Of a DNA stretch of 64,000 nucleotides, positions 6,099 through 47,922 are shown one piece after another. Source of the DNA: an uncultured Actinomycetota bacterium. Its GTDB lineage: Bacteria; Actinomycetota; Acidimicrobiia; Spongiisociales; UBA5794. The position numbers were made by a program, and so were the translations under genes. The notes beneath the pieces are model-generated. The model saw nothing but the letters and a program-made list of their open reading frames with translations, ran no database searches and was not told where the DNA came from. Location: assembly GCA_963715255.1 (NCBI GenBank), contig CAVQRN010000002.1:49185-113184 (forward strand), given 5' to 3'. How positions within the stretch are numbered: the stretch's first letter is position 1; every line of letters starts with the position of its first letter.

Positions 6099-6686
6099 TC
6101 AAGACTCTCGCAGCAACTCCTCATAGCCCTCAGGCGTGTTCACGTCGAGGGGAGCTTCGCCGGCAACCGGCAGCCTTACGACCCGGTCGTCGCTCGACTC
6201 GATCAGCATTCGACCGAGCACCTTTGCCCCCGTCATCTCCTTCATGGACTCGACGGACGCGCGTGACAAGAGGAACGGATGGGCGACCCGATCGCTGTAC
6301 TCGGTCACACCTGCCCACGGCTTCTCCTCTGCCCAGAGATCGATCATCGAATCGATCGCCTCGGTACGGATCGTCGGCAGGTCGCCCGGTACGAGGACGA
6401 AGGCTTCGGCCTCTCCATCAGTAGCAGTCGCTGTCAACAACGATGACATGTTCCCACGGCGGTAGTCCGGATTTCGTGCGATCGTCGCCCGCCGAGCTTC
6501 CATGGAAGCTTCGATCATTTCTGCTTTGAATCCGACGACAACGATCACCCGGTCAGCGACGCTCGCCTCGACTGCCGCGATCGTCGCGTCGAGCACCGTC
6601 GATCCCCGGTACGGCAGCAGAAGCTTCGGCTGTCCCATCCGCTCGGAGGCTCCTGCGGCGAGAACGATCCCGGTGACCGATGCCAT
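6099..6686 (-). CDS. mocA: MobA-like NTP transferase, probable molybdenum cofactor cytidylyltransferase
   Basis: N-terminal LAAGASERMG nucleotidyltransferase motif. Lies 4 bp downstream of the Mo-binding subunit gene. Confidence 0.75.
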   Translation of the reverse strand: MASVTGIVLAAGASERMGQPKLLLPYRGSTVLDATIAAVEASVADRVIVVVGFKAEMIEASMEARRATIARNPDYRRGNMSSLLTATATDGEAEAFVLVPGDLPTIRTEAIDSMIDLWAEEKPWAGVTEYSDRVAHPFLLSRASVESMKEMTGAKVLGRMLIESSDDRVVRLPVAGEAPLDVNTPEGYEELLRES

Positions 6687-6689
6687 CGC

Positions 6690-8912
6690 TCAGATCCCGA
6701 TGATGTCCTCGGGGAGCACGGGGACCCTCGTCAGGTCTCTCCCCGTCGCAGCACGAATCGCCGCGATGATCGCAGGCGTCGAACTGATGGTGGGAGATTC
6801 CCCGATCCCTTTCGCACCGAACGGACCCCAGTGGTCGCCCTCTTCGATGATCCGGGTCTCAACGTCCGGGGCATCAAGGAAGGTTGGAATCAAGTAGTCC
6901 GTGAAGGTGGGGTTCCGGATGACACCCCCGTCGACGACCAGTTGCTCCATCACGGCGAGGCCCATGCCCTGCATAATGCCGCCCTCGAGTTGTCCAGTGA
7001 TCGCCTGGGGATTGAGCGCCTTGCCGACATCCTGAGCCGTATCGACTCGAACGACACGCACCAGGCCAAGCTCCGCATCGACATCCACGACCGCCCGGTG
7101 GGCGGCGACGACGAAGCCGGCGTGAACATCACCCTGGCCATTCTCATCCGGCGGATACGTTGCTGGATGCCGAAACTGCACGTGTTGCTCGACGGGTCCA
7201 TCGGCGCAGACCTCGGTGATGCTTGCGACGAGCTCGCCGTCGCGATAGACGCCGTCGTCACGCAGCTCATCACCATCGTGTTTGGCGAGGATCTGATCTC
7301 GGAGCCCAACGGCTGCGGCATGCACCGCACCGCCGGTCATCTGTGTCTGGCGGGACGCCGAAGTTGATCCGGCCGATCCGATCTGCGACGTGTCATCCCA
7401 CACGACGGCGACACGATCGGTGCCGAGAATCGTCCTGGCGATCTGCTGGCACACTGTCACGAGTCCCTGTCCGACTTCCATGGCAGCGGTGTGCACCTCG
7501 ACGCCTGCCGTGGTCATCACGGCCCGGGCCTCGGCGAAGTCGTCAAAGCCTTCGGAGAAGGCGAGGTTCTTGAGCCCGACGGCGTACCCGATGCCCCGCA
7601 CGACCGAAGACGACGGAGTAGTCAAACCGGTCCCGCCTGGGAGCAGCCGCGGATCGTCACTGTGAAGCGGTTCCGGCAGCGGAATCGCTTCGACCGCGTC
7701 GATCACGGCAACCGTGGGGAGCGAGCCTTGGATGATCTGCCCGGAGGTTGCGATGCGATCACCGGGAGCGAGCGCGTTGCGTCGCCGAAGATCGAGCGGA
7801 TCCATGTCGAGCGCCTCGGCGAGGCGATCCATCTGCATCTCGGATCCGAAACACGTCTGCACCGCCCCGAAGCCGCGCATCGCTCCGCACGGCGGATTGT
7901 TGGTTCTGGCGGCGATCGCATCAACCACGACGTTGTCACACCGGTATGCACCGACGGTGAAGAACGCCGCGTTGGCCAGTACCGCCCGGCTGGTGTGGGC
8001 ATACGCTCCACCGTCGAAGATGAGGCGTGCCGTGACCTTGACCAGGTTCCCGTCTTCGTCTGCCTCGTGGCGATACCACATGCGCGACGGGTGACGCTTC
8101 ACGTGACCCACAAACGATTCGGAACGGTCGTACACCATCTTCACCGGACGCCCCGTAGCCAGCGAGAGCATGGCGACGTGGATGTGGAGCGAGATGTCCT
8201 CTCGGGATCCGAATGCGCCGCCGATGCCGGCAGGGTGGCAACGAATCTGGTCCGGCTCCATGTCGAGGCAGGCGATGATCTGTCGGTGGTCGACGTGAAT
8301 CCACTGGCTTGTGATGTACAGATCGAGGCCGCCCTCCCCGTCGGGGATGGCGAAGCCTGCTTCCGGTCCGAGAGGAGCCTGATCCTGGGTAGCGGTCTCG
8401 TAGAACCCTTCGACAACGACCGATCCGACCGCTGCCTCATCACCGCGCCGGACCTTCATCTCCCTGAACGTGAATCCTTCGTCGGCGGCCTTGTCCGGGT
8501 CGACAACGGGCTCCAGCGGCTCCCACTCGACCACGATCGCAGCAGCGGCACGTCTGGCCGTCTCCTCGTCCTCGGCGGCCACGACGGCAACCGGTTCGCC
8601 CCAATACCGGGCGATGCCGTCGCAGAGCACGGGCTGATCCTGCTCCTCCTGTCCGAACAGCGGTTCGCCCGGTACGTCGTCCTGTGTCAGGACCGCTCGA
8701 ACGCCGGAGATAGCCAGCGCAGGAGCGATGTCGAGCTTCAGGAGCCGGGCGTGGGCGTGGGGGCTTCGCAGTGTGGCGCCCCACAACATGTCCTCCGACG
8801 AGAGATCGGACGCATACGCGAAGCTCCCGATGACCTTCGGCTTGCCATCGGGTCGGCGCACGCTCGTTCCGATGCCGCCGACAATCCGGGGTTTGGTGCG
8901 TGTTGTCATGAT
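6690..8912 (-). CDS. xanthine dehydrogenase/aerobic CO dehydrogenase family molybdopterin-binding large subunit
   Basis: About 740 aa with the aldehyde oxidase/xanthine dehydrogenase a/b hammerhead and Mo-binding regions (PRIVGGIGTSVRRPDG, FGAKGIGESP). The start MTTRTKP at 8912 overlaps the small-subunit stop by ATGA. Confidence 0.9.
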   Translation of the reverse strand: MMTTRTKPRIVGGIGTSVRRPDGKPKVIGSFAYASDLSSEDMLWGATLRSPHAHARLLKLDIAPALAISGVRAVLTQDDVPGEPLFGQEEQDQPVLCDGIARYWGEPVAVVAAEDEETARRAAAAIVVEWEPLEPVVDPDKAADEGFTFREMKVRRGDEAAVGSVVVEGFYETATQDQAPLGPEAGFAIPDGEGGLDLYITSQWIHVDHRQIIACLDMEPDQIRCHPAGIGGAFGSREDISLHIHVAMLSLATGRPVKMVYDRSESFVGHVKRHPSRMWYRHEADEDGNLVKVTARLIFDGGAYAHTSRAVLANAAFFTVGAYRCDNVVVDAIAARTNNPPCGAMRGFGAVQTCFGSEMQMDRLAEALDMDPLDLRRRNALAPGDRIATSGQIIQGSLPTVAVIDAVEAIPLPEPLHSDDPRLLPGGTGLTTPSSSVVRGIGYAVGLKNLAFSEGFDDFAEARAVMTTAGVEVHTAAMEVGQGLVTVCQQIARTILGTDRVAVVWDDTSQIGSAGSTSASRQTQMTGGAVHAAAVGLRDQILAKHDGDELRDDGVYRDGELVASITEVCADGPVEQHVQFRHPATYPPDENGQGDVHAGFVVAAHRAVVDVDAELGLVRVVRVDTAQDVGKALNPQAITGQLEGGIMQGMGLAVMEQLVVDGGVIRNPTFTDYLIPTFLDAPDVETRIIEEGDHWGPFGAKGIGESPTISSTPAIIAAIRAATGRDLTRVPVLPEDIIGI

Positions 8913-9367
8913 CCCTCCCCGGTCACGGTCTCGAAGGCGCGCAGAATGGCTCCATACCCGGTGCAACGGCAGATGTTGCCCGAGAGCGCCTCCCTGATCT
9001 CGGGCTCGGTCGGGTGCGGATTGACCTCGAGCAGATGGGAGCCGGCGACGACGAAGCCGGGAGTGCAGAAACCGCACTGGACAGCGCCTTCGGCCAGCAT
9101 CGCCTCTTGAACGGGGTGAAGTTCGGTGTCGGAGGAGAGCCCTTCGACGGTGGTCACCGTTGACCCGTCGGCGTCCGCTGCCATCACGAGGCAAGAGCAG
9201 AGGGATTCGCCGTCGAAGATGACCGTGCAGGATCCGCACTCGCCTTGTTCACAGGCATCCTTCGTCCCGGGAAGGTCGAGATCGTTCCGGAGGGCGTGCA
9301 GCAGGCTCTCGTGTCCTGCCACGTCGACAACTCGGTCCTTGCCGTTGACGGTGATCGTGACGTTCAT
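8906..9367 (-). CDS. (2Fe-2S)-binding small subunit of the molybdenum hydroxylase
   Basis: Both cluster motifs are intact: CEQGECGSC...C and QCGFCTPG...CRCTGY. 153 aa. Confidence 0.9.
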   Translation of the reverse strand: MNVTITVNGKDRVVDVAGHESLLHALRNDLDLPGTKDACEQGECGSCTVIFDGESLCSCLVMAADADGSTVTTVEGLSSDTELHPVQEAMLAEGAVQCGFCTPGFVVAGSHLLEVNPHPTEPEIREALSGNICRCTGYGAILRAFETVTGEGS

Positions 9368-10164
9368 AGGAGACTCCGTTCCACGAGCCGTCTTGCCAGC
9401 ACACCAGAGGCGTGTCTCCGATAGGCCTCCGTCGATCGATGGTCGGTGATCGGCCGAACTTCGTCGGAGACGATACGGGCGAACTCTGCGAGAACGGATT
9501 CCGAGATTGTCGACTCGGCATTGATCATCTCTTCGGCCCGGGTGGCGCGCATCGGCGTTGTGGCGACCGATCCGAGCGCGACGCGGATACCGTCGTCGCC
9601 GCGGATGACCACGCAACTGACAGTCGAGATCACCATGGCGTTCCGGGCCCCCACCTTCGCGAACTCCTGTGCGCTTGACACGTCTTCGGGTACCACGACG
9701 GCGGTGATGATTTCGTCGGCCGCCAATGAGGTCCGCTTCACACCCGTGAAGAACTCGTTCCACGGGATTGTCCTGGTTCCGCGTTCCTTGGATCGGACTT
9801 CGATCGAAGCATCTGCGGCAGCGATCCACGGCAATCCGTCACCGGCCGGACTCGCCGTGCCGACGTTCCCTCCGATGGTTCCTGCGGCACGGATCTGGGG
9901 TGAGCCGACGGTTCTCGCTGCCTGAGCGAGGCCTCGATGACGGTCCCGTTCAAGTCGGGCCCAGGTGACACCGGCGCCGATGCGCGTTGGTGTCACCTCC
10001 CGGAGTTCTTCGACCCGTCTCAAGGAGAGAATTCGGGACGGTCGGTGGTGTGCAAGGTTGACCTCAACCATGAGGTCGGTTCCTCCGGCGAGGAGCTGCG
10101 CATCCGGCTGCTGAGCCTTCACTGCGAGCGCTTCGTCGAGGTCGTGGGCAGCAACGAATTCCAT
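9364..10164 (-). CDS. FAD-binding medium subunit (CoxM/XdhB-like) of the molybdenum hydroxylase
   Basis: LLAGGTDLMVEVN FAD-binding motif, CO dehydrogenase flavoprotein C-terminal region, translationally coupled to the small subunit. Confidence 0.85.
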   Translation of the reverse strand: MEFVAAHDLDEALAVKAQQPDAQLLAGGTDLMVEVNLAHHRPSRILSLRRVEELREVTPTRIGAGVTWARLERDRHRGLAQAARTVGSPQIRAAGTIGGNVGTASPAGDGLPWIAAADASIEVRSKERGTRTIPWNEFFTGVKRTSLAADEIITAVVVPEDVSSAQEFAKVGARNAMVISTVSCVVIRGDDGIRVALGSVATTPMRATRAEEMINAESTISESVLAEFARIVSDEVRPITDHRSTEAYRRHASGVLARRLVERSLL

Positions 10165-10229: not shown

Positions 10230-10296
10230 TCGAGCTACGAGCTGCCGGCTACCGGCAGTCCCCACTCAGCTACTCAGCTACTCAGCTACTCAACCG
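10230..10296. repeat. octamer repeat array (GAGCTAC x2, CTACTCAG x3 plus a small palindrome CCGGCTACCGGCAG)
   Basis: The last repeat unit provides the TGA stop of the amidohydrolase gene. Confidence 0.75.
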
Positions 10297-11654
10297 ACGA
10301 GCCGCGCCGCGGCCATATGGTGCTTCTCGATCAAGACCGGCAGCTCAACACCGACCAGTTCTCCGTCCTTCACGACTGCCCGTCCATGCACGTAGTTCTG
10401 GTCGACACCAGTCGGCGCGACAAAGAGCACGGCGGCAACCGGATCGTGGAGCGCACCGGCATACTCCAAACGGTCGAGCGAGATGGCGATGAAGTCCGCT
10501 CCCTTTCCTGGCTCCAGCGAGCCGACATCGTCCCGCCCGAGGACCGCGGCCGAACCGCGGGTTGCGATCCGAAGTGCTTCTCGTGCCGTGAGCAACCGGC
10601 CGCCTTCGATCGACGGGGCGGCTGCCAGCCGCGCAAGCAGCATCGCCTGCCGGGCTTCGGCGATCAGGTGACTGCCATCGTTGCTCGCCGAGCCGTCCAC
10701 GCCGAGACCGAGTCGAACATTGGACGCCAAGTAGCGCCGGACCGGAGCGATGCCGGATGCGAGGCGCATGTTCGATGACGGACAGTGGGCTACTCCGGTC
10801 CCCGATTCGGAGAGTCTTTCAATCTCGGCGTCGTTGATGTAGATGCCGTGGGCATACCAAACGTCATTGCCAACCCATCCCAGGTCCTCCATGAGTTCGA
10901 CGGGGCGCCGCCCGAACGTCTCGATGCAGAACTGCTCCTCGTCGTGTGTCTCGGCGACGTGGGTGTGGAGATGGACGCCGTAGCGCCGGGCCAGTGCGGC
11001 GGATTCGCGCATCAGGCCCGCGGTCACGGAGAACGGTGAACACGGTGCGACGACGACGCGGGTCATGGCTCCGGGTGCCGGATCGTGGAACGCGTTGATC
11101 ACCCGTTCAGTGTCAAGAAGGATCGTCTCGTCGTCCTCAACCACCGAGTCGGGAGGCAGTCCCCCGTCGCTCTCACCGAGACTCATCGAACCTCTGGCGG
11201 CATGGAAACGCAGCCCAACCGCTGCTGCACCCGCGATCTGGTCGTCGAGGCTCGACCCATTCGGGAAGAGGTACTGGTGGTCAGACGAGGTCGTGCAGCC
11301 GGAGAGTGCCAATTCGGAGAGGGCGAGCTGTGTCGAGATTCTCACATCGTCCGGAGTGAGGCGTGCCCATATGGGATAGAGCGTGCGGAGCCAGTCGAAC
11401 AGGCCAACGTCCTGTGCGCCGGGCACGGCGCGGGTCAGCGTCTGATAGAAGTGATGGTGTGTGTTGATGAGTCCGGGAAGCACGACATGCCCGGAGAGGT
11501 CCACAACGTCGTCGGCCGTCTCGGGAAGCTCCGCGGTCGAGCCGACCTGTTCGATGAACCCGTCGACGGCGAAGAGGCCCCCGTCGCTGATCTCCGTTCC
11601 AGCGTCGTCCATGGTGGCGAGAACCTGCGCGTGCCGAACGAGAAGTGTGCTCAT
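10290..11654 (-). CDS. amidohydrolase superfamily (COG0402), guanine/8-oxoguanine deaminase-like
   Basis: HHHFYQT metal-binding motif and the remaining His/Asp ligands of the TIM-barrel amidohydrolase fold. Start MSTLLVRHAQ at 11654. Confidence 0.75.
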   Translation of the reverse strand: MSTLLVRHAQVLATMDDAGTEISDGGLFAVDGFIEQVGSTAELPETADDVVDLSGHVVLPGLINTHHHFYQTLTRAVPGAQDVGLFDWLRTLYPIWARLTPDDVRISTQLALSELALSGCTTSSDHQYLFPNGSSLDDQIAGAAAVGLRFHAARGSMSLGESDGGLPPDSVVEDDETILLDTERVINAFHDPAPGAMTRVVVAPCSPFSVTAGLMRESAALARRYGVHLHTHVAETHDEEQFCIETFGRRPVELMEDLGWVGNDVWYAHGIYINDAEIERLSESGTGVAHCPSSNMRLASGIAPVRRYLASNVRLGLGVDGSASNDGSHLIAEARQAMLLARLAAAPSIEGGRLLTAREALRIATRGSAAVLGRDDVGSLEPGKGADFIAISLDRLEYAGALHDPVAAVLFVAPTGVDQNYVHGRAVVKDGELVGVELPVLIEKHHMAAARLVG

Positions 11655-11756
11655 AGAGAACAATGTACCAACCCGACCGTGGTCGTCCGTCGGTAGTCGG
11701 GTCCCCGCTTCCTCGATACAATGGCGAGACGGGGTCGAAGAAGAGGAGCGACGAAC

Positions 11757-12497
11757 ATGATTACGCAGTACCACCGACCGCTCACGCTCGAAGAGGCGGT
11801 CGCGCTCACCGCACGACCCGATGCCGTGATCATCGCCGGAGGAACCTCCGTCAATGCCGACCCCGGCCGCAGGCCCGCCACCGCTGTTGACCTGCAAGCG
11901 CTCGACCTCGCAGGAATCGACACCGACGGCGAGTCCATCCGTATCGGTGCGACAACACGCCTCCAAGATCTCGTCGATTCGACACTCGTCCCTGTCGTGC
12001 TCCGCGATCTCGCCCGACGGGAAGCACCGAATACCATCCGCAATGCCGCAACGATTGGCGGAACGATCGGGGCCGTCGATGCAGAGAGCGAACTACTTGC
12101 CGGCCTGCTCGCGTTCGGATCGAGCGTAACGCTCGTGCGTGCCGGTTCGACGACCGAGCATGCTCTCGACGAGATCCTCGACGACCCGGCGCTGCTCAAC
12201 GGAGCCATCATGACCAGCGTATCCATCCCGTCCAACGGACTCGCCGCAGCCGATCGGACCGGTCGCACCCCCATGGATCGGCCGATCGTGATGGCCGTCG
12301 CACACCGGGACCACAAAGGGACCGTTCGGCTGGCCATGACCGGTGTCTTCACCCGCCCCGTTGTGGTCGATCCAGAGCAGATCTCCAGCCTTGATCCACC
12401 ATCCGACTTCCGGGGCTCGCCGGGCTACCGCAAGAACCTTGCCGAGGTACTCGCAGGCAGGGTCCTCGCCACCGTCACCGGAGGTGAACGAACATGA
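11757..12497 (+). CDS. FAD-binding molybdopterin dehydrogenase subunit, second copy
   Basis: AGGAG RBS before the ATG at 11757. IIAGGTSVN FAD motif. Overlaps the next gene by 4 bp. Confidence 0.75.
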   Translation: MITQYHRPLTLEEAVALTARPDAVIIAGGTSVNADPGRRPATAVDLQALDLAGIDTDGESIRIGATTRLQDLVDSTLVPVVLRDLARREAPNTIRNAATIGGTIGAVDAESELLAGLLAFGSSVTLVRAGSTTEHALDEILDDPALLNGAIMTSVSIPSNGLAAADRTGRTPMDRPIVMAVAHRDHKGTVRLAMTGVFTRPVVVDPEQISSLDPPSDFRGSPGYRKNLAEVLAGRVLATVTGGERT

Positions 12498-15388
12498 CGA
12501 TCACCCTCACGATCAACGGGACAAGGCGTTCTCTCCTCTGCGAGCCGCACGAATCTCTCCGCACCGTGCTCCGTCGGGCGGGTTATCACAGTGTTCGGTA
12601 CGGATCGGGAACCGGCGAGACGGGGGCGGCCGCAGTCCTCGTTGACGGCCGCCTCATCTCTGCCGATGTCATGCTCGCCGCACAGGCCGACGGTCATGAC
12701 GTCGAGACGGTCGAAGGCCTGAGCGCGCCAGGCACGCTCCACCCGATCCAGGAAGCGTTCATCGAGACCGGGGCAATTCAGTCGGGCTACTCAACACCTG
12801 CCACGATCCTGGCGGCGAAAGCCCTCATCGACCGGAATCCCGACCCGACGGAGAACGAAGTCCGTGACGCTCTCTCCGGAATCCTCGACAGAGAGACCGG
12901 CTACCTCCGACCGGTCCATGCGGTCCTCCGCGCCGCTGCGGTGTTGCGCGGTGAAACGCCGGAGAGCATCGACGTGGTCTCCCTCGACGCTCTCGTCGGC
13001 ACCGACGGCCAACACGCCGGCACGGACGGCATCAGCGTCATCGCCCCGCGTGTCGTCCCGAGTTCCGACGTCCCCGAAACTCGCGTCGTCGGCAAGCCCG
13101 AGACGAAGGTTGATGCACTCAAACTGGCGAAAGGCAATCCTGCGTTCACCGACGACGTCGATCTGACCGGAATGCTGATCGCAAAGGTGCTCTACAGCCC
13201 CCACGCTCATGCCAGGATCGTTGCCATCGACGATTCGGAAGCGCGGGCGCTGCCCGGCGTTCACGCCGTGCTCCATCACGGCAATGTCTCCCGAGTGCGG
13301 TACGCGTCGGGCGGTCAGAGCTACCCGAATCCGCTCCCCTATGACCAGGTCAGTTTCGACAACAAGGTCCGTTTCGTTGGTGACCGCGTCGCTGCCGTCG
13401 CCGCCGACACCGAGGAGATCGCCCTTGCGGCCGTCGCCTTGATCGATGTCACCTACGAGGTGCTCCCTGCCGTCTTCGATGAGAACGATGCGATCCTCGA
13501 CGGTGCGCCGGTGATCCACGATGAAGCCGACATGGAGGGGGCGCACGACGCCTCCCACAACCTTGTCCATCACATCCAAGCCCAGACCGGCGACGTTGCA
13601 GACGGGTTCGCGAGCGCCGACCGCGTCTTCCAACACACGTCGCGCGTCCACCAGGTCCAGCAGGCACCGATCGAACCACACATTGCGATCTCGGCCTGGG
13701 ACAGCGACGAGCGGCTCGTCATCACATCATCGACCCAGGTGCCCTTCCACGTCCGACGGATGGTCGCTCCGCTGCTCGGGTTGCCGGTGAAGAAGATCCG
13801 AATCATCAAGCCGCGCATCGGCGGCGGTTTCGGCGTCAAACAAGAGATGTTGATCGAGGACATCGTCGGCCACCTCACGATCGTGACCGGCCGTCCGGTT
13901 CGGCTTGAACTCACCCGCGAGGAGGAGTTCATCTCGAGCCGGACCCGACATCCGCAAACGATCACGTTCAAGACCGGCGTCGACGCAAGAGGCAAACTGA
14001 CCGCCCAAGAGATGCGCGTCGTCGCCAACACCGGCGCCTACGGAACCCACGGCCTCACGGTGCAGATGGTGACCGGCCTCCGGGGACTCAGTTCCTACAA
14101 CTCCCCGCTGAAGCGATTCGATTGCAGGGTCGCATACACGAACATCCCAGTCCCAGGGGCCTACCGCGGGTACGGGGCTCCACAGGCGCTCTACGCCCTG
14201 GAGACTCACATGGAGGACATTGCCGACGAACTCGGCATGGACGCAATCGAATTCCGCCGACTGAACTGGACCGGCGTCGGCGACCCGCTCGACATCGCCC
14301 CTCAACTCGGTGAGGGCGACCAGGATGCCAGCGTGATGCCGGTCGTGACATCGAGCGGTCTCGAGGAAGCCGTCGCTCAGGGACAGCGGGCAATCGGATG
14401 GAACCGACGAACCGACGCAGAGTGGCATCGGCCCGCCGACCGACCGAACATCCGCCGGGGCCTCGGATTTGCGATGGCGATGCACGGCACCGCGATCCCC
14501 GGCCTCGACATGGGTGGTGCGAGCCTCAAGATCAACGACGACGGTTCATTCAACTTGCTGGTTGGCGCCACCGATCTTGGAACCGGGTCGGACACGGTGC
14601 TGGCGCAGATCGCTGCGGAAGTGGTCGGTGTACGAACCGATGACATCATCGTCTACTCATCCGACACCGACATGACTCCATTCGATGTTGGTGCGTATGC
14701 GTCGAGCACGACCTACATCTCGGGGATGGCCACCAAACGCGTGGCCGAACAGGTTCGTAGTCAGATCATCGAACGCGCGGCCCTCATGCTCGGCGTCGAA
14801 GGGGACTCGATCGATCTCTACGACGGGTCGGCATGGTCGACCGACGGGCAATCGGTGACGCTTGAGAAGATCGCACTATCCACGCTCCACCAGGAGGGCC
14901 AGCATCAGATCATGGCGGACGCGTCCTACGTCTCGCCGGAGTCGCCTCCACCATATGCGGCCCAGTTCGCTGAGGTCGAGGTTGACATCGAGACGGGGCA
15001 GGTGACCGTCAATCAACTCGTGATGGCGGTCGACTGTGGCGTCCCGATCAACCCGGTCACGGCGTCCGGGCAGGTCGAAGGCGGGATGGTGCAGGCCCTT
15101 GGGTACGGGCACTGCGAGGAGATGGTGTACGACCAGGACGGACGGATGCTCAATCCGCAGTTCGGCCCGTACAAGATCTACCGCGCCGACGAGATGCCAC
15201 GACTCGAGGCGATTCTGGTACAGACGATGGAACCGAGTGGTCCCTTCGGAGCCAAGGCAATCGCCGAGATCCCGAAGGACGCCGTCGCCCCTGCCATCAG
15301 GAACGCGATCGTAGACGCAACCGGTGTTCGGATCGCCAACATCCCGTTCACACCGGAACGCGTCTGGAACGCGCTGCAGCAAGCGTGA
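12494..15388 (+). CDS. fused ferredoxin-like (cysteine-less) and molybdopterin-binding subunit of a xanthine dehydrogenase family enzyme
   Basis: The N-terminal 150 aa align to CoxS but all eight Fe-S cysteines are replaced (YGSGTGETGAAAV; SGYSTPA; DRETGY). About 800 aa follow with the Mo-binding large subunit fold. Confidence 0.8.
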   Translation: MTITLTINGTRRSLLCEPHESLRTVLRRAGYHSVRYGSGTGETGAAAVLVDGRLISADVMLAAQADGHDVETVEGLSAPGTLHPIQEAFIETGAIQSGYSTPATILAAKALIDRNPDPTENEVRDALSGILDRETGYLRPVHAVLRAAAVLRGETPESIDVVSLDALVGTDGQHAGTDGISVIAPRVVPSSDVPETRVVGKPETKVDALKLAKGNPAFTDDVDLTGMLIAKVLYSPHAHARIVAIDDSEARALPGVHAVLHHGNVSRVRYASGGQSYPNPLPYDQVSFDNKVRFVGDRVAAVAADTEEIALAAVALIDVTYEVLPAVFDENDAILDGAPVIHDEADMEGAHDASHNLVHHIQAQTGDVADGFASADRVFQHTSRVHQVQQAPIEPHIAISAWDSDERLVITSSTQVPFHVRRMVAPLLGLPVKKIRIIKPRIGGGFGVKQEMLIEDIVGHLTIVTGRPVRLELTREEEFISSRTRHPQTITFKTGVDARGKLTAQEMRVVANTGAYGTHGLTVQMVTGLRGLSSYNSPLKRFDCRVAYTNIPVPGAYRGYGAPQALYALETHMEDIADELGMDAIEFRRLNWTGVGDPLDIAPQLGEGDQDASVMPVVTSSGLEEAVAQGQRAIGWNRRTDAEWHRPADRPNIRRGLGFAMAMHGTAIPGLDMGGASLKINDDGSFNLLVGATDLGTGSDTVLAQIAAEVVGVRTDDIIVYSSDTDMTPFDVGAYASSTTYISGMATKRVAEQVRSQIIERAALMLGVEGDSIDLYDGSAWSTDGQSVTLEKIALSTLHQEGQHQIMADASYVSPESPPPYAAQFAEVEVDIETGQVTVNQLVMAVDCGVPINPVTASGQVEGGMVQALGYGHCEEMVYDQDGRMLNPQFGPYKIYRADEMPRLEAILVQTMEPSGPFGAKAIAEIPKDAVAPAIRNAIVDATGVRIANIPFTPERVWNALQQA

Positions 15389-16176
15389 ACACGATTGGTC
15401 CCCGGGACATCCTGGCGGAGTTGACCGCCGCCGCCGATGGTGGACGACCGGTCGTGCTCGCCACCATCGTCGGAACCGAGCGGTCGGTCCCCCGGCACGC
15501 GGGCGCCAAGATGGTCGTGCACGCGGATGGGACCACAGTCGGGACGATCGGTGGTGGCGAGGTCGAAGCCCTTGTTCGCGACGAAGCCCTGGCCGTGCTG
15601 AAGGATCGAAGCCCTCGCCTCCGCAGCTTCACGCTCAACGATCCTGAGCAAGGCGACCCCGGTATCTGCGGGGGCACAATGACCGTCTATCTGGAGCCAT
15701 ATATGACCCCGCGCACCGTGTACGTCATCGGAGCCGGTCACGTCGGTCGCTCCGTCGTCGACCTCGCCGACTGGCTCGGGTACCGCACCGTCGTCGTCGA
15801 CGACCGGGCCGACCTCGTGACCGAGGAGGCCATGCCGAATGCCGGCGTCCGCTTCACGGGCTCCGTGAAGGACGCCCTCGCTGAGCACCCTGCAGATGAA
15901 ACCACCGCCGTCGTCGTCGTGACGAGGAGTCACGAGCTCGACGCCCAGATTCTGCCGATCCTCCTCGAAACGTCCGCTCCCTACATCGGTGTGATGGGTA
16001 GCAAACGCCGGTGGGCAACGACCCGGGAAGCACTGGTCGAATCGGGCACGTCCGCCGAGGCGCTTGGCCGGGTCCACGTTCCGATCGGCCTCAGCATTGG
16101 TGCCGAGACCGTCGAGGAGATCGCTGTGTCGATCATGTCCGAGATCATCGAGTCGGCTGCGGCGAGCAACGGGTGA
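15385..16176 (+). CDS. xdhC: XdhC/CoxI family molybdenum hydroxylase maturation factor
   Basis: XdhC N-terminal domain (VVLATIVGTERSVPRHAGAKMVV) and Rossmann-like C-terminal domain. 4-bp overlaps on both sides. Confidence 0.8.
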   Translation: MNTIGPRDILAELTAAADGGRPVVLATIVGTERSVPRHAGAKMVVHADGTTVGTIGGGEVEALVRDEALAVLKDRSPRLRSFTLNDPEQGDPGICGGTMTVYLEPYMTPRTVYVIGAGHVGRSVVDLADWLGYRTVVVDDRADLVTEEAMPNAGVRFTGSVKDALAEHPADETTAVVVVTRSHELDAQILPILLETSAPYIGVMGSKRRWATTREALVESGTSAEALGRVHVPIGLSIGAETVEEIAVSIMSEIIESAAASNG

Positions 16177-16979
16177 TCGACTTCTCCGACCATCTCGTCG
16201 TCGTCCGCGGCGGCGGCGACCTCGGGTCCGGTGTCATTTGGCGTCTGGCTCGGGTTGGTTTCCCCGTCGTCGTCCTCGAACTCGAGCGTCCTCTGACGGT
16301 GCGGCGCACCGTTGCTTTCTCGTCGGCCGTCGACCAGGGACGCGTCGTGATCGACGGCATCGAGGGCGTCTTGGTCTCCTCGGCCGAAACGGCCATCGAG
16401 ACCGCCGAGAGGGGCGCTGTGCCGGTTCTCGTGTCCCCCGACGTCCCTGTGCTTCCCATGCCGATCTCAACGCTCGTCGATGCCCGACTTGCCAAACAGG
16501 TACTCGACACGACCATCGACCGGGCACCGTTCGTCGTTGGACTCGGCCCCGGGTTCGTCGCGGGTCGCGATTGCGATGCGGTCATCGAGACGATGCGCGG
16601 CCACCGACTCGGTCGGGTCATCTGGGACGGACCGGCAGCACCGAACACCGGCGTCCCCGGCGAGATCGGTGGCGCATCCGGAGATCGTGTGCTCCGGGCG
16701 GAAACTGACGGTGAGCTCCGGTGGAACGTCTCCTTCGGTGACCGCGTCGAACCGGGCCGGCTGCTCGGCACCATCGAGGGCACTCCGGTGAAGGCGAAGA
16801 CCGGGGGAACGGTGCGCGGCCTGATCCAGCCGGGACCCGTCGAGATCGGTCTCAAGATCGGCGACGTTGACCCCCGATTCGATCCAGATGCCATTCATCA
16901 GATCTCCGACAAAGCACTCTCGATCGGCGGCGCCGTGCTCGAAGCCATCCTCGTCCGGGCGGGCGGCGCCGGAAGATGA
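16173..16979 (+). CDS. yqeB: selenium-dependent molybdenum hydroxylase system protein, YqeB family
   Basis: GTG start overlapping the xdhC stop. N-terminal LVVVRGGGDLGSGVIWRLARVGFPVVVLE matches the YqeB family N-terminal region as I recall it. Confidence 0.7.
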   Translation: MIDFSDHLVVVRGGGDLGSGVIWRLARVGFPVVVLELERPLTVRRTVAFSSAVDQGRVVIDGIEGVLVSSAETAIETAERGAVPVLVSPDVPVLPMPISTLVDARLAKQVLDTTIDRAPFVVGLGPGFVAGRDCDAVIETMRGHRLGRVIWDGPAAPNTGVPGEIGGASGDRVLRAETDGELRWNVSFGDRVEPGRLLGTIEGTPVKAKTGGTVRGLIQPGPVEIGLKIGDVDPRFDPDAIHQISDKALSIGGAVLEAILVRAGGAGR

Positions 16980-17692
16980 CGGCACCGCTGAGAGATCGCT
17001 TCGGTATCGGCTCGCGCGAGCTCGTCTCGATCGTCGGTGCAGGCGGCAAGTCCACGATCCTCTTCGCTCTCGGGCGCGAGCTTGCCGGCTCGTCGGGTCG
17101 GGTCGTTCTCACGACGACAACGAAGATGGCAATCGACCAAGTCACCGAGCCGATCTGTTGGTCGGATGACCCGGCCGTTGTCGAGGCGGCACTCGTTCCG
17201 GGGCATCCGGTGTTCGTGGCGATGGGCCGGATCCCCGGCAAGGTCACCGGCCCTTCACCGGAGGCTGTCGATCGCCTCTTCTCCGAGACGACGGCCCAGT
17301 ACATCCTGGTCGAAGCCGACGGGGCTCGGTCGATGTCGATCAAGGCGCCGGCCGATCACGAGCCGGCAATCCCAAGTAACTCGACCACGGTGATCGTGGT
17401 CGCCGGCATCGATGCCACCGGCCGGCCAATCTCCGAGGTAGCGCATCGCCCCGATCTCGTCGCGAGGATCACAGGTATTGGAGCAGACGACGTCTTGACC
17501 ATCGAGGGCGCCGCTTCCGTCCTTCTCCACCGGAGTGGCGGCCTGAAGGGAATCCCAGATGCCGCACGAGTGGTGATGGCGATCACAAAAGTGACCCCGG
17601 ACGACGAACAAGGAGCGAACCAGTTGGCGGCAATCCTCGAACGCCACCCAAGGACCGACATGACGATCAAATTGGGGACTTCTCAGCTTTGA
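16976..17692 (+). CDS. yqeC: selenium-dependent hydroxylase accessory protein YqeC
   Basis: LVSIVGAGGKSTILFALGREL...VVLTTTTKM P-loop signature, as I recall for the YqeC family. 4-bp overlap with yqeB. Confidence 0.7.
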   Translation: MTAPLRDRFGIGSRELVSIVGAGGKSTILFALGRELAGSSGRVVLTTTTKMAIDQVTEPICWSDDPAVVEAALVPGHPVFVAMGRIPGKVTGPSPEAVDRLFSETTAQYILVEADGARSMSIKAPADHEPAIPSNSTTVIVVAGIDATGRPISEVAHRPDLVARITGIGADDVLTIEGAASVLLHRSGGLKGIPDAARVVMAITKVTPDDEQGANQLAAILERHPRTDMTIKLGTSQL

Positions 17693-17740: not shown

Positions 17741-19143
17741 TACCCGACCACTGATTCCGGCAGCAACGCATTCGTTCCACGATGCAGATACTCCCCGCGC
17801 CCGGGTTCGCCGACGAATTCACCGAGATCGACGATGACCTCTCCGCGCAGCATGACGGTCTCGACGCGGCCACCGATCTCCGCACCCTCGAAGACCGAGT
17901 AATCGAGATTCATCGAATGCGTCGCTGCAGACAGTGTGTGTGATGCGGCAGGGTCGTAGATGACGACGTCGGCGTCGGACCCGGGAGCGATACGTGCCCT
18001 TCTTCGGGTAGATCCCGGACAGCTTGGCAGGCGTCTCCGCGGTTACTTCGATCCACCTGGTGAGTGGAATCCAGCCTTCCACGACACCCTGGTAGACGAG
18101 ATCCACTCGGTGCTCGACAACGCCGAGGCCGTTCGGGATCTTGCGGAAGTCTCCCCGCCCCGCCTCCTTCTGCTTCCACGTGAACGGGCAGTGGTCGGTG
18201 GCGACCGCGTCGATCCTGCCGGTCGAGACCCCGGACCACAGCGCCGCTTGGTGTCCTTCACTGCGACGCCGCAGCGGTGGCGAACAGACGAACTTCGCTG
18301 CCTCGAATCCCTCGGGGAGGTCCTCCTGGGCGAGCCAGAGGTACTGGGGACAGGTTTCGGTGAAGACGGGCAGGCCCCGATCACGAGCGACGACGGCCTC
18401 AGCGAATGCATCCTGCGAAGAGATGTGCACGATCACAAGAGCGCATCCCACGATTTCCGCGAGTGCGGCAACACGATGGACGGCTTCGGCCTCCATCGAG
18501 GCCGGTCGGGTCAGCAGGTGGTAGATCGGATCGGTCTCGCCTCGGGCAATGGCCTGATCCCGAAGGGCGTCGATGGCGATTCCGTTCTCGGCATGCATCA
18601 TGATCGTGGCGCCGATCGAGGCAGCGACCTGCATCGCTTCGAGGATCTGCCGATCGTCAGACAGATTCACGCCCGGGTACACGGTGAAGAGCTTGAAGGT
18701 GGTGACCCCCGCATGCATCATCTCGGCGAATTCGCCGAGCGTGCCTTCATGGACGTCGGTGACCATCATGTGGAATCCGTAGTCGATGAACGACTTCCCC
18801 TCGGCGCGATCCATCCATTCGGCGAGTCCGTCTTTGAGCGTTCCTCCCCGTGTCTGGCCGGCGTAGTCGACGATCGTCGTTGTCCCACCGATAGCAGCAG
18901 CCCTCGTGCCCGTCTCATACGTATCTGCCGACGACGTCCCAGAGACCGGCAACTCCATGTGCGTATGCATGTCGACGCCGCCGGGAATCACGTACCGTCC
19001 GGTGGCGTCGATCACTCGGTCGAATTCGTCTCCCGCTGCGCCGGGTTCGACGACACCGACGATGCGCTCTCCCTCGACGACGACATCTGCCTCCGTCGCC
19101 ACGGCACCCGTCACGACCGTTCCGTTACTGATGAGTGTTCGCA
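17741..19143 (-). CDS. dihydropyrimidinase/D-hydantoinase (cyclic amidohydrolase); apparent +1 insertion frameshift near 18003
   Basis: DMHTHME metal site, carboxylated-Lys region and DHCPF motif. After ...PAKLSGIYPKKGT the frame switches. The alternative frame gives the expected IAPGSDADVVIYDP...LRGEVIVD C-terminus. Start MRTLISNG at 19143. Confidence 0.75.
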
Positions 19144-19269
19144 TGGTCCCATCATGGTCGATGACGCGGCGGTGCACGAGTAGGGGCCGAAGGTCGCAAC
19201 ACCGCATCTCTGTGGCAGCGTAGGAGTTGTTGAGTAGTGCGATTGCCCAGATCGGCTTACGATCGGTCC

Positions 19270-19600
19270 CCCCGGCCGCGTCTTCTTCCTCCCCCTCAGG
19301 GGGAGGTGCCGCCCGTAGGGCGGCCGAGGGGGTCAAAGAGTCCCGTTGTGCGAACCGCGAACCATACAACGGTCCCCTCGGCGTCTTGTTCTTCCTCCCC
19401 CTCAGGGGGAGGTGCCGCCCGCAGGGCGGCCGGAAGGGGGTCGAAGGGGTTCCGATTCGCGAATCGCGAACCATACAACGGTCCCCTCGGCCGTAGGCCG
19501 GGGGGACGCGGAGCGAAGCGACGCAGGGGGGCGTCTTCTTCTTCCTCCCCCTCAGGGGGAGGTGCCGCCCGCAAGGCGGCGGTGGGGGTCGGACCGTGAC
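19270..19600. repeat. imperfect tandem repeat (units about 105-145 bp, about 2.6 copies). Each unit carries two adjacent perfect GC-rich hairpins: CCTCCCCCTCAGGGGGAGG and GCCGCCCGYAGGGCGGC
   Basis: Three copies of TTCTTCCTCCCCCTCAGGGGGAGGTGCCGCCCG-AGGGCGGC start near 19281, 19389 and 19535. Two copies of CGCGAACCATACAACGGTCCCCTCGGC are interleaved. Sits in the divergent region between the dihydropyrimidinase and DUF222-HNH genes. Confidence 0.75.
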
Positions 19601-19787: not shown

Positions 19788-20849
19788 ATGGTGTTGATTC
19801 GTGAAGCCGACCGCCGGCAGGCGCCGCTCGCAGACGGCTGCCGGTCTCTCGCAGAGTGGGTGACGGGCCGTCTCGATGTTGCACCAGAGACGGCGAAGAC
19901 CTTGGTGTCGACGGCTCGGCGTCTCGAATCGCTCCCCACGGTCGAACACGCCACCGCCGTCGGGTCGATCAGCTTCGATCGGACCGTCGAGGCGGCCCGG
20001 ATCGCTCTCCCATCCGAAGACGCCACGATCGTCGACGAACTTGCCGTCTTCGACGTCGCTGCGATTCGGCGTCTCGTGTCGAACCGGCACCGCATGACCC
20101 GTGACACAGAGCGTGAAGTGTTCGAGACCCGCTATGTGGCGGTGCAGGCGAACCTGGACGAGTCGTCGTGGCGGGTCCACGGACAACTCCCCGCCACAGC
20201 CGGCAGATGCTTCGTTGACGCCCTCGACGCCAAAGCCGACCAGTTACCACCCGATCCGGACGGGGATCGCAGTCGGACGACCCGCTACGCCGATGCGTTG
20301 TGGGCCATCAGCGTCGACTCGCTCGCTGGTAGCGACGGCGCCACGGTCGAATCTGCGACACCGCTGTTGACCGTCTTCGTCGACGCCCACGATGCTGCCG
20401 GGACGAACGGTGAGACCGGCGTGATGATTGAAGCCGGACCCAGAGTCGGACCCGCAACGATCGAAGCGATCCTCTGCGACGGGGTCATCGAAGTCACCGG
20501 CCGAACACAAGACGGCACACCGGTGAATATGGGACGCCGCAGCCGCACCATCCCACCCAGGCTGAAACGCTTCGTTCTCGCCCGCGACGGCGGCGTGTGC
20601 ACCATTGCGGGCTGTGTCAGTAGGTACCGGCTCCAACCACACCACATCACCCCCTGGTCCCAAGGCGGCGCCACCGACGCCGACAACCTCACCACACTCT
20701 GCTGGTTCCACCACCACGTCGTCATCCACGGCCGAGGCTTCACCATCAACCCCTCATCCCCACCCCAACGCCGCCGACTCCGTCGACCATGGATCCACGC
20801 TCCACCGCCGCGGTCCGACTACGCGGGTGACATTCATGTTCACTACTAG
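19788..20849 (+). CDS. DUF222 plus HNH endonuclease domain protein (mycobacterial REP13E12-type); the N-terminus looks short or possibly frameshifted
   Basis: C-terminal HNH motif HHITPWSQGG...NLTTLCWFHH. DUF222-like central region. A 25-aa ORF (19719-19796) in another frame abuts the start. Confidence 0.7.
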   Translation: MVLIREADRRQAPLADGCRSLAEWVTGRLDVAPETAKTLVSTARRLESLPTVEHATAVGSISFDRTVEAARIALPSEDATIVDELAVFDVAAIRRLVSNRHRMTRDTEREVFETRYVAVQANLDESSWRVHGQLPATAGRCFVDALDAKADQLPPDPDGDRSRTTRYADALWAISVDSLAGSDGATVESATPLLTVFVDAHDAAGTNGETGVMIEAGPRVGPATIEAILCDGVIEVTGRTQDGTPVNMGRRSRTIPPRLKRFVLARDGGVCTIAGCVSRYRLQPHHITPWSQGGATDADNLTTLCWFHHHVVIHGRGFTINPSSPPQRRRLRRPWIHAPPPRSDYAGDIHVHY

Positions 20850-46281: not shown

Positions 46282-47230
46282 TCAAGGACCGAACTCGGAA
46301 TATTCCAATCCTTTCGCCGTTCTCCTGACCGGCGGCGTCGGTGGAGCGCGCGCTGCACGGTCGCTCAACCGGGTCTTTGCCGGTGGGCGGCTCACGGTGG
46401 TCGGCAACGTAGGCGATGACGAGCTGATCCACGGCGTCCACGTGTCGGCTGATCTCGACACGGTCCTCTACACACTTGCCGGTATCGAGGGCCCTCACGG
46501 TTGGGGTATCGCTGGGGACTCGTTCACCGTGATGGATCACCTGGAGACGCTCGGCGTCGACACAACCTTCCGCCTCGGTGATCGTGATCTGGCGACGTGT
46601 CTGTTCCGAACCGGGTTGCTCGCGTCGGGGAACAGGCTCTCGGACATCACAGAGCAGATCCGGCTGGCGCTCGGTGTCGAGACACGGATCCTGCCCGCCA
46701 CCGATGACCCGGTCCGAACCAGAGTTCGAATCGCCGACGGAAGCTGGCTCCCGTTCCAGGAGTACTTCGTCGCTCGGGGGCACCGTGACCACGTCCTAGA
46801 AGTGGAATACACCGGTGCCGAGCGTGCACTACCCGGCCCGGGGGTTGTCGAGGCCATCGCTGCAGCCGATGTCGTCGTGATCGCCCCATCGAATCCGCCC
46901 CTGTCGATCGGACCGATCATCGCCGTTCCGGAGATTCGCCGGGCCATCGCCGACAAGGAACGGGTCGTCGCCATCAGCCCTCTCTTCGGGGGCAAGGCGC
47001 TCAAGGGCCCGGCGGAGCGGGTGTTGGCGTCTCTCGGATTCCCGCCAGGGAACGCCGGAGTGTTGGCATCCTACGAGGGCCTCATCTCCGACGTCGTGGT
47101 CGACATCGGAGACGCAACTGACGTGCGAAAGCTGTCCACGTCGGTCATGATTCACGCCACCAACACCCGCCTCGGCACCGAGGACGAGGCCCGCCGGTTT
47201 GCCGAATGGTTCCAGGAGGCGTTCGCATGA
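46268..47230 (+). CDS. cofD: 2-phospho-L-lactate transferase (F420 biosynthesis)
   Basis: VLLTGGVGGAR N-terminal motif, CofD/UPF0052 fold. Followed by cofE with a 4-bp overlap. Confidence 0.85.
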   Translation: MNQAIQGPNSEYSNPFAVLLTGGVGGARAARSLNRVFAGGRLTVVGNVGDDELIHGVHVSADLDTVLYTLAGIEGPHGWGIAGDSFTVMDHLETLGVDTTFRLGDRDLATCLFRTGLLASGNRLSDITEQIRLALGVETRILPATDDPVRTRVRIADGSWLPFQEYFVARGHRDHVLEVEYTGAERALPGPGVVEAIAAADVVVIAPSNPPLSIGPIIAVPEIRRAIADKERVVAISPLFGGKALKGPAERVLASLGFPPGNAGVLASYEGLISDVVVDIGDATDVRKLSTSVMIHATNTRLGTEDEARRFAEWFQEAFA

Positions 47231-47922
47231 GCATCGAGATCCACGCGATTCGCGGAATCCCCGAGGTCGCCCCCGGCGACGACCTGGCGACGCTCATCGT
47301 CCATGGACTCGAGTCATCGCAGATCGCGCTGTCTGACCGTGACATCGTCGTCATCACGCACAAGGTGGTGTCGAAAGCCGAAGGCCGGATCGAACCCGCC
47401 CCCGATGACCGCGCCTACCGGGAACTGGCCGAACGCGAGGCCCGATCGATCCTGCGACGACGCGGCGATCTCCTCATCGCACAGACCGAACACGGGTTCA
47501 TCTGCGCGAACGCGGGCGTCGATCGCTCCAACGTGGCAGACGGATGGGCGGTCCTCCTCCCCGTCGATCCGGACCGATCGGCGCATCGGATTCGGCTCCG
47601 TATCGAACGATTGACGGGCGTCTCGATCGCCGTCGTCATCACGGATACGTTCGGTCGCCCGTGGCGACGCGGGCTCGTCGATGTCGCCATCGGCATCTCA
47701 GGACTGCCATCGATCCTCGACCTGCGCGGTCAATCCGATGCACACGGACGCACAATGAGCGTTACGGAGATCGCCATCGTCGATGAGATCGCTGCAGCCG
47801 CCGACCTTGTCATGGGCAAGGCCGACGAGATCCCGGTCGCCGTTGTGCGGGGCCTCGATCTGACCGGGGATGGACGAGCAACCGACCTGGTGAGACCCCC
47901 GGATGAAGACATGTTCCGGTGA
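47227..47922 (+). CDS. cofE: coenzyme F420-0:L-glutamate ligase (CofE domain only)
   Basis: CofE family signature (VVITHKVVSKAEGR...ICANAGVDRSN). No fused nitroreductase domain. Confidence 0.8.
   Translation: MSIEIHAIRGIPEVAPGDDLATLIVHGLESSQIALSDRDIVVITHKVVSKAEGRIEPAPDDRAYRELAEREARSILRRRGDLLIAQTEHGFICANAGVDRSNVADGWAVLLPVDPDRSAHRIRLRIERLTGVSIAVVITDTFGRPWRRGLVDVAIGISGLPSILDLRGQSDAHGRTMSVTEIAIVDEIAAAADLVMGKADEIPVAVVRGLDLTGDGRATDLVRPPDEDMFR

Follow-up and report, generated by a model that had tools for sequence, protein, structure and literature searches.

An XdhD-like molybdenum hydroxylase subunit retains a folded CoxS-type domain lacking all eight [2Fe-2S] cluster ligands

The window analysed here, a 64,000-nucleotide (nt) stretch of the genome of an uncultured bacterium of the Acidimicrobiia (GenBank assembly GCA_963715255.1, contig CAVQRN010000002.1, positions 49,185 to 113,184), was found to encode a fused molybdenum (Mo) hydroxylase subunit whose N-terminal CoxS-type domain has none of the Cys residues that hold the two [2Fe-2S] clusters. 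In textbooks these clusters are the obligatory link between Mo and flavin adenine dinucleotide (FAD) in the xanthine oxidase family. As read from the sequence, the domain no longer binds either cluster, because no Cys occupies any of the eight ligand sites and no other set of Cys residues exists in either the fused subunit or the FAD subunit encoded upstream. The enzyme type, XdhD/YgfM, is already known and was recently characterised, and the architecture seen in the window belongs there. What deserves attention is the complete absence of the iron-sulfur (FeS) ligands, which appears to have gone unrecognised, contradicts the annotation of these proteins and arose convergently.

The N-terminal 150 aa had been described in an earlier, sequence-only reading of this DNA as aligning with an authentic small subunit encoded in the same window, and near-gapless alignments confirm the CoxS-type fold. 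Pfam Fer2_2 matches aa 72-144 of the fused subunit (E=4e-21), and Fer2 (PF00111) gave no match on the N-terminal domain. The FeS subunit of E. barkeri nicotinate dehydrogenase (3hrd_D) matches aa 2-148 without a gap (E=1e-33), and the window's own small subunit, which has its ligand Cys at positions 39, 44, 47, 59 and 98, 101, 133, 135, is 43% identical over 152 aligned positions. In the multiple alignment all eight ligands proved to be substituted, as had been claimed: the fused subunit carries S38, T43, A46 and D58 at the first cluster site and S97, S100, D132 and E134 at the second. The motif 'VMLAAQ', given for the fourth ligand of the first cluster, was right as to the loss but slightly off in position, the residue being D58 in 'ISADVML'. 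Only four Cys occur in the whole 964-aa chain, scattered at positions 16, 544, 848 and 874. An alternative Cys set for the clusters was sought in the fused subunit and in the upstream FAD subunit and was not found, and the search for other Cys or His ligands, which could have overturned the sequence-only reading, likewise gave none. C16, H68 and H83, which are mostly conserved, were considered as substitutes and rejected; H83 is present in normal subunits too. That the region is a linker unrelated to the ferredoxin fold is ruled out by the Pfam and Protein Data Bank (PDB) matches and by the structural model and selection data given below. With ligand loss complete, the canonical Mo-FeS-FeS-FAD wire cannot exist in this subunit, in agreement with the earlier reading. 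Q96 (in QCGFC, here QSGYS) and R133 (in CRCTGY, here DRETGY) are invariant in Cys-containing and Cys-less relatives alike; we take these motifs to lie at the interface of the pterin and FeS I, as in solved members of the family.

The loss is not due to chance or to an assembly error, because Cys is absent from the eight sites in 120 of 120 clusters of close homologues (79-94% identity) and in 79 of 79 species-representative genomes of Acidimicrobiia and Chloroflexota (GTDB). The same Cys-less fused architecture is thus found in other genomes, in each of these 79 species representatives, and the replacements themselves follow a conserved pattern in this clade, [SA][TA][ADS][DE] at the first site and S[SA]DE at the second. 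Against relatives of at least 80% identity, the ratio of nonsynonymous to synonymous substitution rates (dN/dS) was 0.085 for the N-terminal domain, 0.089 for the Mo part and 0.29 for the linker between them, values that are meaningful only as a comparison between regions, dS being close to saturation. The N-terminal domain is under purifying selection as strong as that on the catalytic part. An AlphaFold2 model of the fused subunit has a predicted local distance difference test score (pLDDT) of 93 and a predicted template modelling score of 0.93, with 90-97 pLDDT in the N-terminal domain; its uncertain region is confined to the linker, where aa 160-180 have low pLDDT. Over the whole chain, the model's closest fold match is the fused aldehyde oxidoreductase of Desulfovibrio (1dgj/1sij, TM 0.84-0.90), and the N-terminal domain is confidently modelled as docked on the Mo domain in the manner of that enzyme. 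The conservation pattern, dN/dS, the model and the invariant Q96 and R133 together mean that the N-terminal domain is a conserved, folded, cofactor-less module.

The Mo part has the domain set and the active-site residues of a xanthine oxidase family Mo-binding subunit. Ald_Xan_dh_C (a/b-hammerhead), MoCoBD_1 and MoCoBD_2 were all matched above the Pfam cutoffs (E 1e-25 to 8e-79), and the best PDB sequence match is the alpha subunit of 4-hydroxybenzoyl-CoA reductase (1rm6_A, E=2e-107). A check of the Mo-site residues found Q415 (in STQ), R558 (in AYRGYG) and the catalytic E925 intact and kept across the clade, and Q450 stands in the motif GGGFGVKQ. With bovine numbering mapped for motif-anchored active-site residues only, E925 presumably corresponds to E1261 (the catalytic Glu), Q415 to Q767 (the Gln at Mo=O) and R558 to R880 (the substrate Arg). 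The window protein further contains an XdhD-type LGEG loop with E607 (LGEGD), a loop that is missing from E. coli XdhA and common to relatives with 8, 4 or 0 ligand Cys. E607 has its counterpart in E606 of E. coli XdhD, for which a role in orienting urate was proposed (PMC12507026).

An FAD subunit had been noted just upstream, and a gene with a FAD_binding_5 domain does lie there, overlapping the open reading frame (ORF) of the fused subunit by 4 nt. Its true start is probably M13, at position 11757. The product contains no Cys and keeps the flavin motifs AGGT and TIGG; its C-terminal domain is missing a stretch of about 21 aa. The gene is retained in 74 of 80 related loci, and an FAD-subunit gene stands upstream in all variants of the system, whether they have 8, 4 or 0 Cys.

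The origin of the loss was examined among the best 150 relatives from a search of 1.84 billion cluster representatives, 47 of which have an N-terminal CoxS-like domain. Most of these 47 keep all eight Cys, including the nearest full-length relative, P0121 (57% identity). The Cys-less representatives are P0143, P0174 and P0221, which are fragments from the clade of the window protein, together with P0136, which the tree places with E. coli XdhD, and P0169, whose N-terminal domain resembles the E. coli type and which stands outside the tree. P0122, the nearest 50%-cluster representative, has no N-terminal domain and a C-terminus of frameshift garbage, and was excluded from the evidence. In neighbour-joining trees of the Mo part, 200 of 200 bootstraps placed the window clade with P0121 and P0123, and E. 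coli XdhD and P0136 outside this group. The N-terminal domain of the window protein shares 51-55% identity with the Cys-containing domains of P0121, P0126 and P0128 and 34% with its counterpart in E. coli XdhD. An insertion of 1 aa ahead of the first motif is present in the E. coli clade and missing from the window clade. Genuine FeS modules are found in the closest relatives of both clades; in P0123 and P0137 M, S and L are encoded by separate genes, and the full Cys set is present in the small subunit of P0123. A single loss shared with E. coli XdhD was rejected on the bootstrap values, the N-domain identities and the insertion, and by these sequence comparisons the clade of Acidimicrobiia and Chloroflexota lost its clusters independently of the E. 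coli XdhD clade. P0124 (L004:1479-4310) has lost only the first, flavin-proximal site (DGDG/CCCC), keeps the four Mo-proximal Cys and still has the FAD-subunit gene upstream; judged by its motifs, it is a possible intermediate stage of cluster loss. All variants share the upstream FAD-subunit gene and the LGEG loop, and the simplest reading of the sequences is a single functional group that lost its clusters on at least two occasions.

The window clade spans Acidimicrobiia and several orders of Chloroflexota at 70-94% protein identity. Members also occur in metagenome-assembled genomes labelled Saprospiraceae, Gemmatimonadales, Kiloniellales and Acidobacteria (loci L006, L017, L020, L059, L064 and others), and these mixed labels suggest horizontal transfer, binning contamination or both.

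Among known systems the closest likeness is to XdhD/YgfM of E. coli K-12, whose XdhD (YgfN, b2881; L001:21317-24187) also has 0 of 8 ligand Cys. The two systems share the order ygfM then xdhD and the fused S-L chain by which the XdhD family is recognised, the loss of the eight FeS Cys, the LGEG glutamate, a short FAD subunit of the YgfM type and linkage to yqeB, yqeC and mocA, with ygfK, ssnA, hyuA and ygeW also linked in relatives of the window operon. They differ in that E. coli XdhD has DADS/SNSD in place of the ligands and the window protein STAD/SSDE without the 1-aa insertion, that the window operon has an XdhC gene of its own, and that the window clade is found in environmental metagenome-assembled genomes of Acidimicrobiia and Chloroflexota, not in gut bacteria. 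Overall identity is 40%. In E. coli XdhD and P0136 the substrate Arg of AYRGYG is replaced by Gln. In 2025 E. coli XdhD was reported to co-purify with a protein of about 30 kDa taken as YgfM; given NADH, this preparation formed 2,8-dioxopurine from urate (PMC12507026).

Database names do not reflect the missing ligands: the RefSeq name of E. coli XdhD is that of a fusion with an 'Fe-S binding subunit', and the NCBIfam family TIGR03313 is called 'Mo/Fe-S-binding subunit'. The close homologues of the window protein bear the Joint Genome Institute label 'putative selenate reductase molybdopterin-binding subunit', a label by which YgfN/XdhD was historically known (Haft and Self 2008, PMC2276186). 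No mention of the missing cluster ligands was found in the searchable XdhD literature, which included PMC12507026, the preprint on the 2,8-dioxopurine dehydrogenase (DOPDH) of Clostridium sporogenes, the commentary PMC12990295 and older reviews; subscription reviews of E. coli molybdoenzymes lay outside this search, and prior mention is possible. The statement that no Cys-less CoxS-like domain fused to a large subunit had been described is accordingly half right: such a protein was known in E. coli XdhD, and its loss of ligands has apparently not been put into words.

DOPDH of C. sporogenes (XdhAC) is selenium-dependent and needs SelD; it is driven by methyl viologen and not by NAD(P)H, and its interconversion of urate and 2,8-dioxopurine is reversible (bioRxiv 10.1101/2025.04.24.650524). 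It resembles the window enzyme in a selenium trait of YqeB, YqeC and SelD, in fused FeS-like and Mo domains and probably in reaction and pathway, but it was described as containing domains that bind iron-sulfur clusters, and it has no FAD subunit. The C. difficile counterpart is about 26% identical to E. coli XdhD (PMC12507026). The aldehyde oxidoreductase of Desulfovibrio (MOP; 1dgj, 1sij, 1vlb) likewise joins a CoxS-type domain and the Mo domain in a single chain, but it has two bound [2Fe-2S] clusters and no FAD subunit, acts on aldehydes and is 27-28% identical. The three-subunit enzymes (CoxSML, PucCDE, E. coli XdhABC, 4-hydroxybenzoyl-CoA reductase, nicotinate dehydrogenase) have the same domains and Mo site; nearest to the Mo part is the alpha subunit of 4-hydroxybenzoyl-CoA reductase, itself a reductive dehydroxylase, and nearest to the N-terminal domain is the FeS subunit of the selenium-dependent nicotinate dehydrogenase (3hrd_D). 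They differ in their eight Cys and internal Mo-FeS-FeS-FAD relay, of which the PucCDE-like enzyme encoded 3 kb away in the window is a normal example.

Table 1 Features of the fused subunit, its operon and the adjoining purine genes in the window.
Feature	Position	Strand	Details
Fused Mo-hydroxylase subunit, ORF	12494-15388	+	964 aa
Cys-less CoxS-type domain, aa 1-150	12494..12943	+	Pfam, alignments, AlphaFold2 model, dN/dS 0.085
Linker from ferredoxin-like to Mo domain, aa 151-197	12944..13084	+	low pLDDT, dN/dS 0.29, length varies among relatives
Molybdopterin-binding part, aa 198-964	13085..15388	+	Pfam, motifs; best PDB sequence match 1rm6_A
Former ligand codons, first cluster	S38 12605-12607, T43 12620-12622, A46 12629-12631, D58 12665-12667
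Former ligand codons, second cluster	S97 12782-12784, S100 12791-12793, D132 12887-12889, E134 12893-12895
YgfM-like FAD subunit	11721..12497	+	FAD_binding_5; best NCBIfam match TIGR03312
XdhC-family molybdenum cofactor insertion chaperone	15385..16176	+	profile matches; in 60/80 related loci
YqeB, selenium-dependent molybdenum cofactor maturation protein (start approximate)	16197..16979	+	TIGR03309, 299.7 bits vs cutoff 220
YqeC, selenium cofactor biosynthesis protein	16976..17692	+	TIGR03172, 173.8 bits vs cutoff 73; Pfam YqeC
Canonical xanthine dehydrogenase and MocA cluster	6099..10164	-	profile matches
MocA, cytidylyltransferase forming molybdopterin cytosine dinucleotide	6099-6686	-
PucD-like Mo subunit	6690-8912	-
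Authentic [2Fe-2S] small subunit, PucCDE-like xanthine dehydrogenase	8906..9367	-	Fer2 + Fer2_2, all eight Cys
FAD subunit of canonical xanthine dehydrogenase	9364-10164	-
8-oxoguanine deaminase, urate-forming, divergent from ygfM	10290..11654	-	NF006055, 668 bits vs cutoff 532
Dihydropyrimidinase/hydantoinase (HyuA-like)	17749..19153	-	frameshift near 17993-18003

The operon has the gene order ygfM-xdhD-xdhC-yqeB-yqeC (Table 1), and its members recur in 51-74 of the 80 related loci (YqeB in 59, YqeC in 51). YqeB and YqeC mark the trait of selenium-dependent molybdenum hydroxylases (Haft and Self 2008, PMC2276186). Both are encoded in this one operon and score above their cutoffs, and by analogy the window enzyme is probably selenium-dependent; SelD was not found among the ORFs scanned in the 64-kb window. 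Two urate producers adjoin the operon, the canonical xanthine dehydrogenase and the 8-oxoguanine deaminase. The 558-aa ORF listed for the latter (10290-11966, minus strand) is over-extended, the family match beginning at residue 105, and the alignment places its start near 11654, so that a short divergent promoter region separates it from ygfM. The hydantoinase gene is split: compared with the L079 orthologue, residues 1-387 lie in frame -1 and residues 384-468 in frame -2, and the cause is either a pseudogene or an assembly error. YgfK and SsnA homologues flank the operon in L028, L064 and L039, where HyuA homologues are also among its neighbours, and a YgeW homologue lies near it in L028; enzymes of the YgfK, SsnA and YgeW types belong to the reductive urate pathway. 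The remainder of the window contains housekeeping genes.

CofD and CofE of F420 biosynthesis are also encoded in the window (46064-47922, plus strand); in Chloroflexota urate clusters F420-dependent enzymes replace YgfK (PMC12507026). After the purine cluster, an intergenic repeat of about 63 nt occurs three times at 19264-19582, the copies being 76-100% identical and spaced by 106 and 150 nt. Each copy holds the palindromes CCTCCCCCTCAGGGGGAGG and GCCGCCCG..GGGCGGC, and by its sequence the repeat looks like an element of the repetitive extragenic palindrome or miniature inverted-repeat transposable element kind. Directly after the repeats is a 353-aa ORF (19788-20849, plus strand) with an HNH motif and a weak match to an IscB nuclease region (E=6e-8, far below cutoff). 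It stands at the place of ygfK and ssnA in relatives such as L028, a position that may mark a rearrangement.

The explanation we favour, and consider probable as a whole, is that the window ORF would encode the Mo subunit of a purine-catabolic molybdenum hydroxylase/reductase of the XdhD type, paired with the YgfM-type FAD subunit, in a clade that lost its clusters independently and kept the emptied domain for structural reasons. By analogy with XdhD the enzyme would be active, and the reaction most likely the reversible dehydroxylation/hydroxylation at C6 that interconverts urate and 2,8-dioxopurine, a substrate suggested by the shared XdhD features and the gene neighbourhood. The N-terminal domain may brace the pterin side of the Mo cofactor, with Q96 and R133 kept, and may carry the docking surface for YgfM; catalysis would take place at the intact Mo site. 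Of the possible electron routes we would place first a slow or conformationally gated transfer from the FAD bound to YgfM, in line with the NADH end-point assay in E. coli, then Mo itself being cycled between redox states by a second purine substrate, and last an external redox partner.

Several observations weigh against this explanation. TIGR03313 is the best-scoring NCBIfam family for the fused subunit at 715.9 bits against a cutoff of 1101.9, and TIGR03312 reaches 90.7 bits on the FAD subunit against a cutoff of 241.5. Descent shared with E. coli XdhD to the exclusion of FeS enzymes was not recovered, and the tree is a neighbour-joining one on representative sequences, not a maximum-likelihood tree. 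The window protein keeps R558 where E. coli XdhD has Gln, and its substrate may differ. ygfK and ssnA are absent from the window and from the loci of its closest relatives. Between the window and loci L006-L085, dN of YgfM is 2.5 times that of XdhD, and the FAD subunit of the canonical xanthine dehydrogenase has, in the same genome pairs, a dN 1.08 times that of its Mo partner; the faster evolution of YgfM hints at a weakened role of the flavin subunit. The distances are a further difficulty. In xanthine oxidoreductase, Mo and FeS I are about 15 A apart, FeS I and FeS II about 12 A, and FeS II and FAD about 8 A, and with both clusters gone a gap of roughly 25 A or more separates FAD from the pterin. 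The usual tunnelling rules allow at best about 1 transfer per second over that gap and realistically 0.01 per second or less, such that transfer from FAD to Mo should fall orders of magnitude short of normal turnover. The activity of E. coli XdhD was reported from end-point assays by liquid chromatography-mass spectrometry, with no rates (PMC12507026); assays of an hour would still detect product at such a rate, and therefore do not settle the physiological donor.

As an alternative, Mo might be cycled independently of Fe-S, either in a ping-pong reaction of two purines at the same Mo site or by a small donor giving electrons to Mo directly. For example, hydroxylation of xanthine at C8 (Mo(VI) to Mo(IV)) might be followed by dehydroxylation of urate at C6 (Mo(IV) to Mo(VI)), with xanthine isomerised to 2,8-dioxopurine as the net outcome; cluster loss would then insulate Mo from the flavin, and YgfM would be vestigial or serve for priming only. 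The recurrent loss of the wire, complete in two clades and limited to the flavin-proximal cluster in the 4-Cys form, suggests that it is dispensable, and members with 8, 4 and 0 Cys fall in one LGEG-loop functional group. YgfM is under relaxed constraint, and neighbouring genes encode a xanthine dehydrogenase that interconverts xanthine and urate. The Clostridium enzyme catalyses the urate/2,8-dioxopurine reaction reversibly (bioRxiv 10.1101/2025.04.24.650524), and the failure of an E. coli delta-xdhA strain to consume xanthine (PMC12507026) is compatible with such a cycle, since catalytic urate would be needed to start it. Nevertheless we regard it as unlikely for the window enzyme: purified E. 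coli XdhD-YgfM made 2,8-dioxopurine with NADH as the sole reductant (PMC12507026), YgfM keeps its FAD motifs and is retained in most loci, and the xanthine oxidase family offers no precedent. A broader form of the idea, which we hold to be doubtful, is that a group of the family including E. coli XdhD has repeatedly discarded both clusters, its chemistry having no need of an internal wire, with Mo cycled at the active site itself and the FAD subunit left as a relic or priming device; the chemistry could be transhydroxylase-like, a net redox-neutral isomerisation that turns xanthine via urate into 2,8-dioxopurine, or could use a directly bound donor. Rather improbable, in our estimate, is that the physiological donor is not the FAD of YgfM but an external redox protein docking near the pterin at the former place of FeS I, for which a ferredoxin-like protein, an Fe-S flavoprotein (YgfK, or of the E. 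coli YgfS/YgfT or AegA type) or an F420-dependent partner would be candidates. The Fe-S proteins YgfK, YgfS and YgfT are kept in the same E. coli region; urate degradation in E. coli is formate-dependent and involves AegA and UacF, according to work cited in PMC12507026; the Clostridium enzyme does not use NAD(P)H (bioRxiv 10.1101/2025.04.24.650524); and Chloroflexota clusters are said to have an F420-dependent enzyme (PMC12507026), with CofD and CofE present in the window. However, no such partner is conserved beside the operon in the 80 loci, YgfK homologues occurring in 13 of them, and the predicted packing of the N-terminal domain on the Mo domain, as in the Desulfovibrio enzyme, covers that face.

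The two remaining explanations concern what the loss itself means. Conserved and partly acidic replacements (D/E58, D132, E134) might be taken to mean that clusters are still present, on Asp, Glu, Ser and Thr or on another subunit. This is hardly credible, since A46 cannot be a ligand, the four Cys of XdhD are scattered and YgfM has none, the replacements differ between the two Cys-less clades, and we know of no [2Fe-2S] site without any Cys or His ligand. The complete loss of a normally essential pair of cofactors could have taken catalysis with it, and the sequence-only reading had named a pseudoenzyme, scaffold or regulatory paralog among its options. We consider that option very improbable and set it aside: the residues of the Mo site are intact, the Mo part has a dN/dS of about 0.09, as does the N-terminal domain, the XdhC, YqeB and YqeC genes that follow in the operon serve cofactor insertion only, and the E. 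coli counterpart was reported active (PMC12507026).

In a widespread clade and in E. coli XdhD, then, the clusters are wholly gone from enzymes whose FAD subunit is kept and whose Mo site is intact. Either a gap of about 25 A or more is bridged with no relay in between, or the electrons follow a physiological path other than the one currently drawn. Loss in two lineages, together with the 4-Cys intermediate, argues that it is adaptive or at least freely tolerated in this group, and the broader reading of Mo cycled at its own active site, if true, would add a new operating mode to the xanthine oxidase family. The 'Fe-S-binding' names of XdhD-type proteins in databases need correcting. E. coli XdhD is the first enzyme of a newly described gut pathway of urate degradation. 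The finding is also relevant to the engineering of urate-lowering probiotics, and the mechanistic gap in electron transfer can be tested in E. coli.

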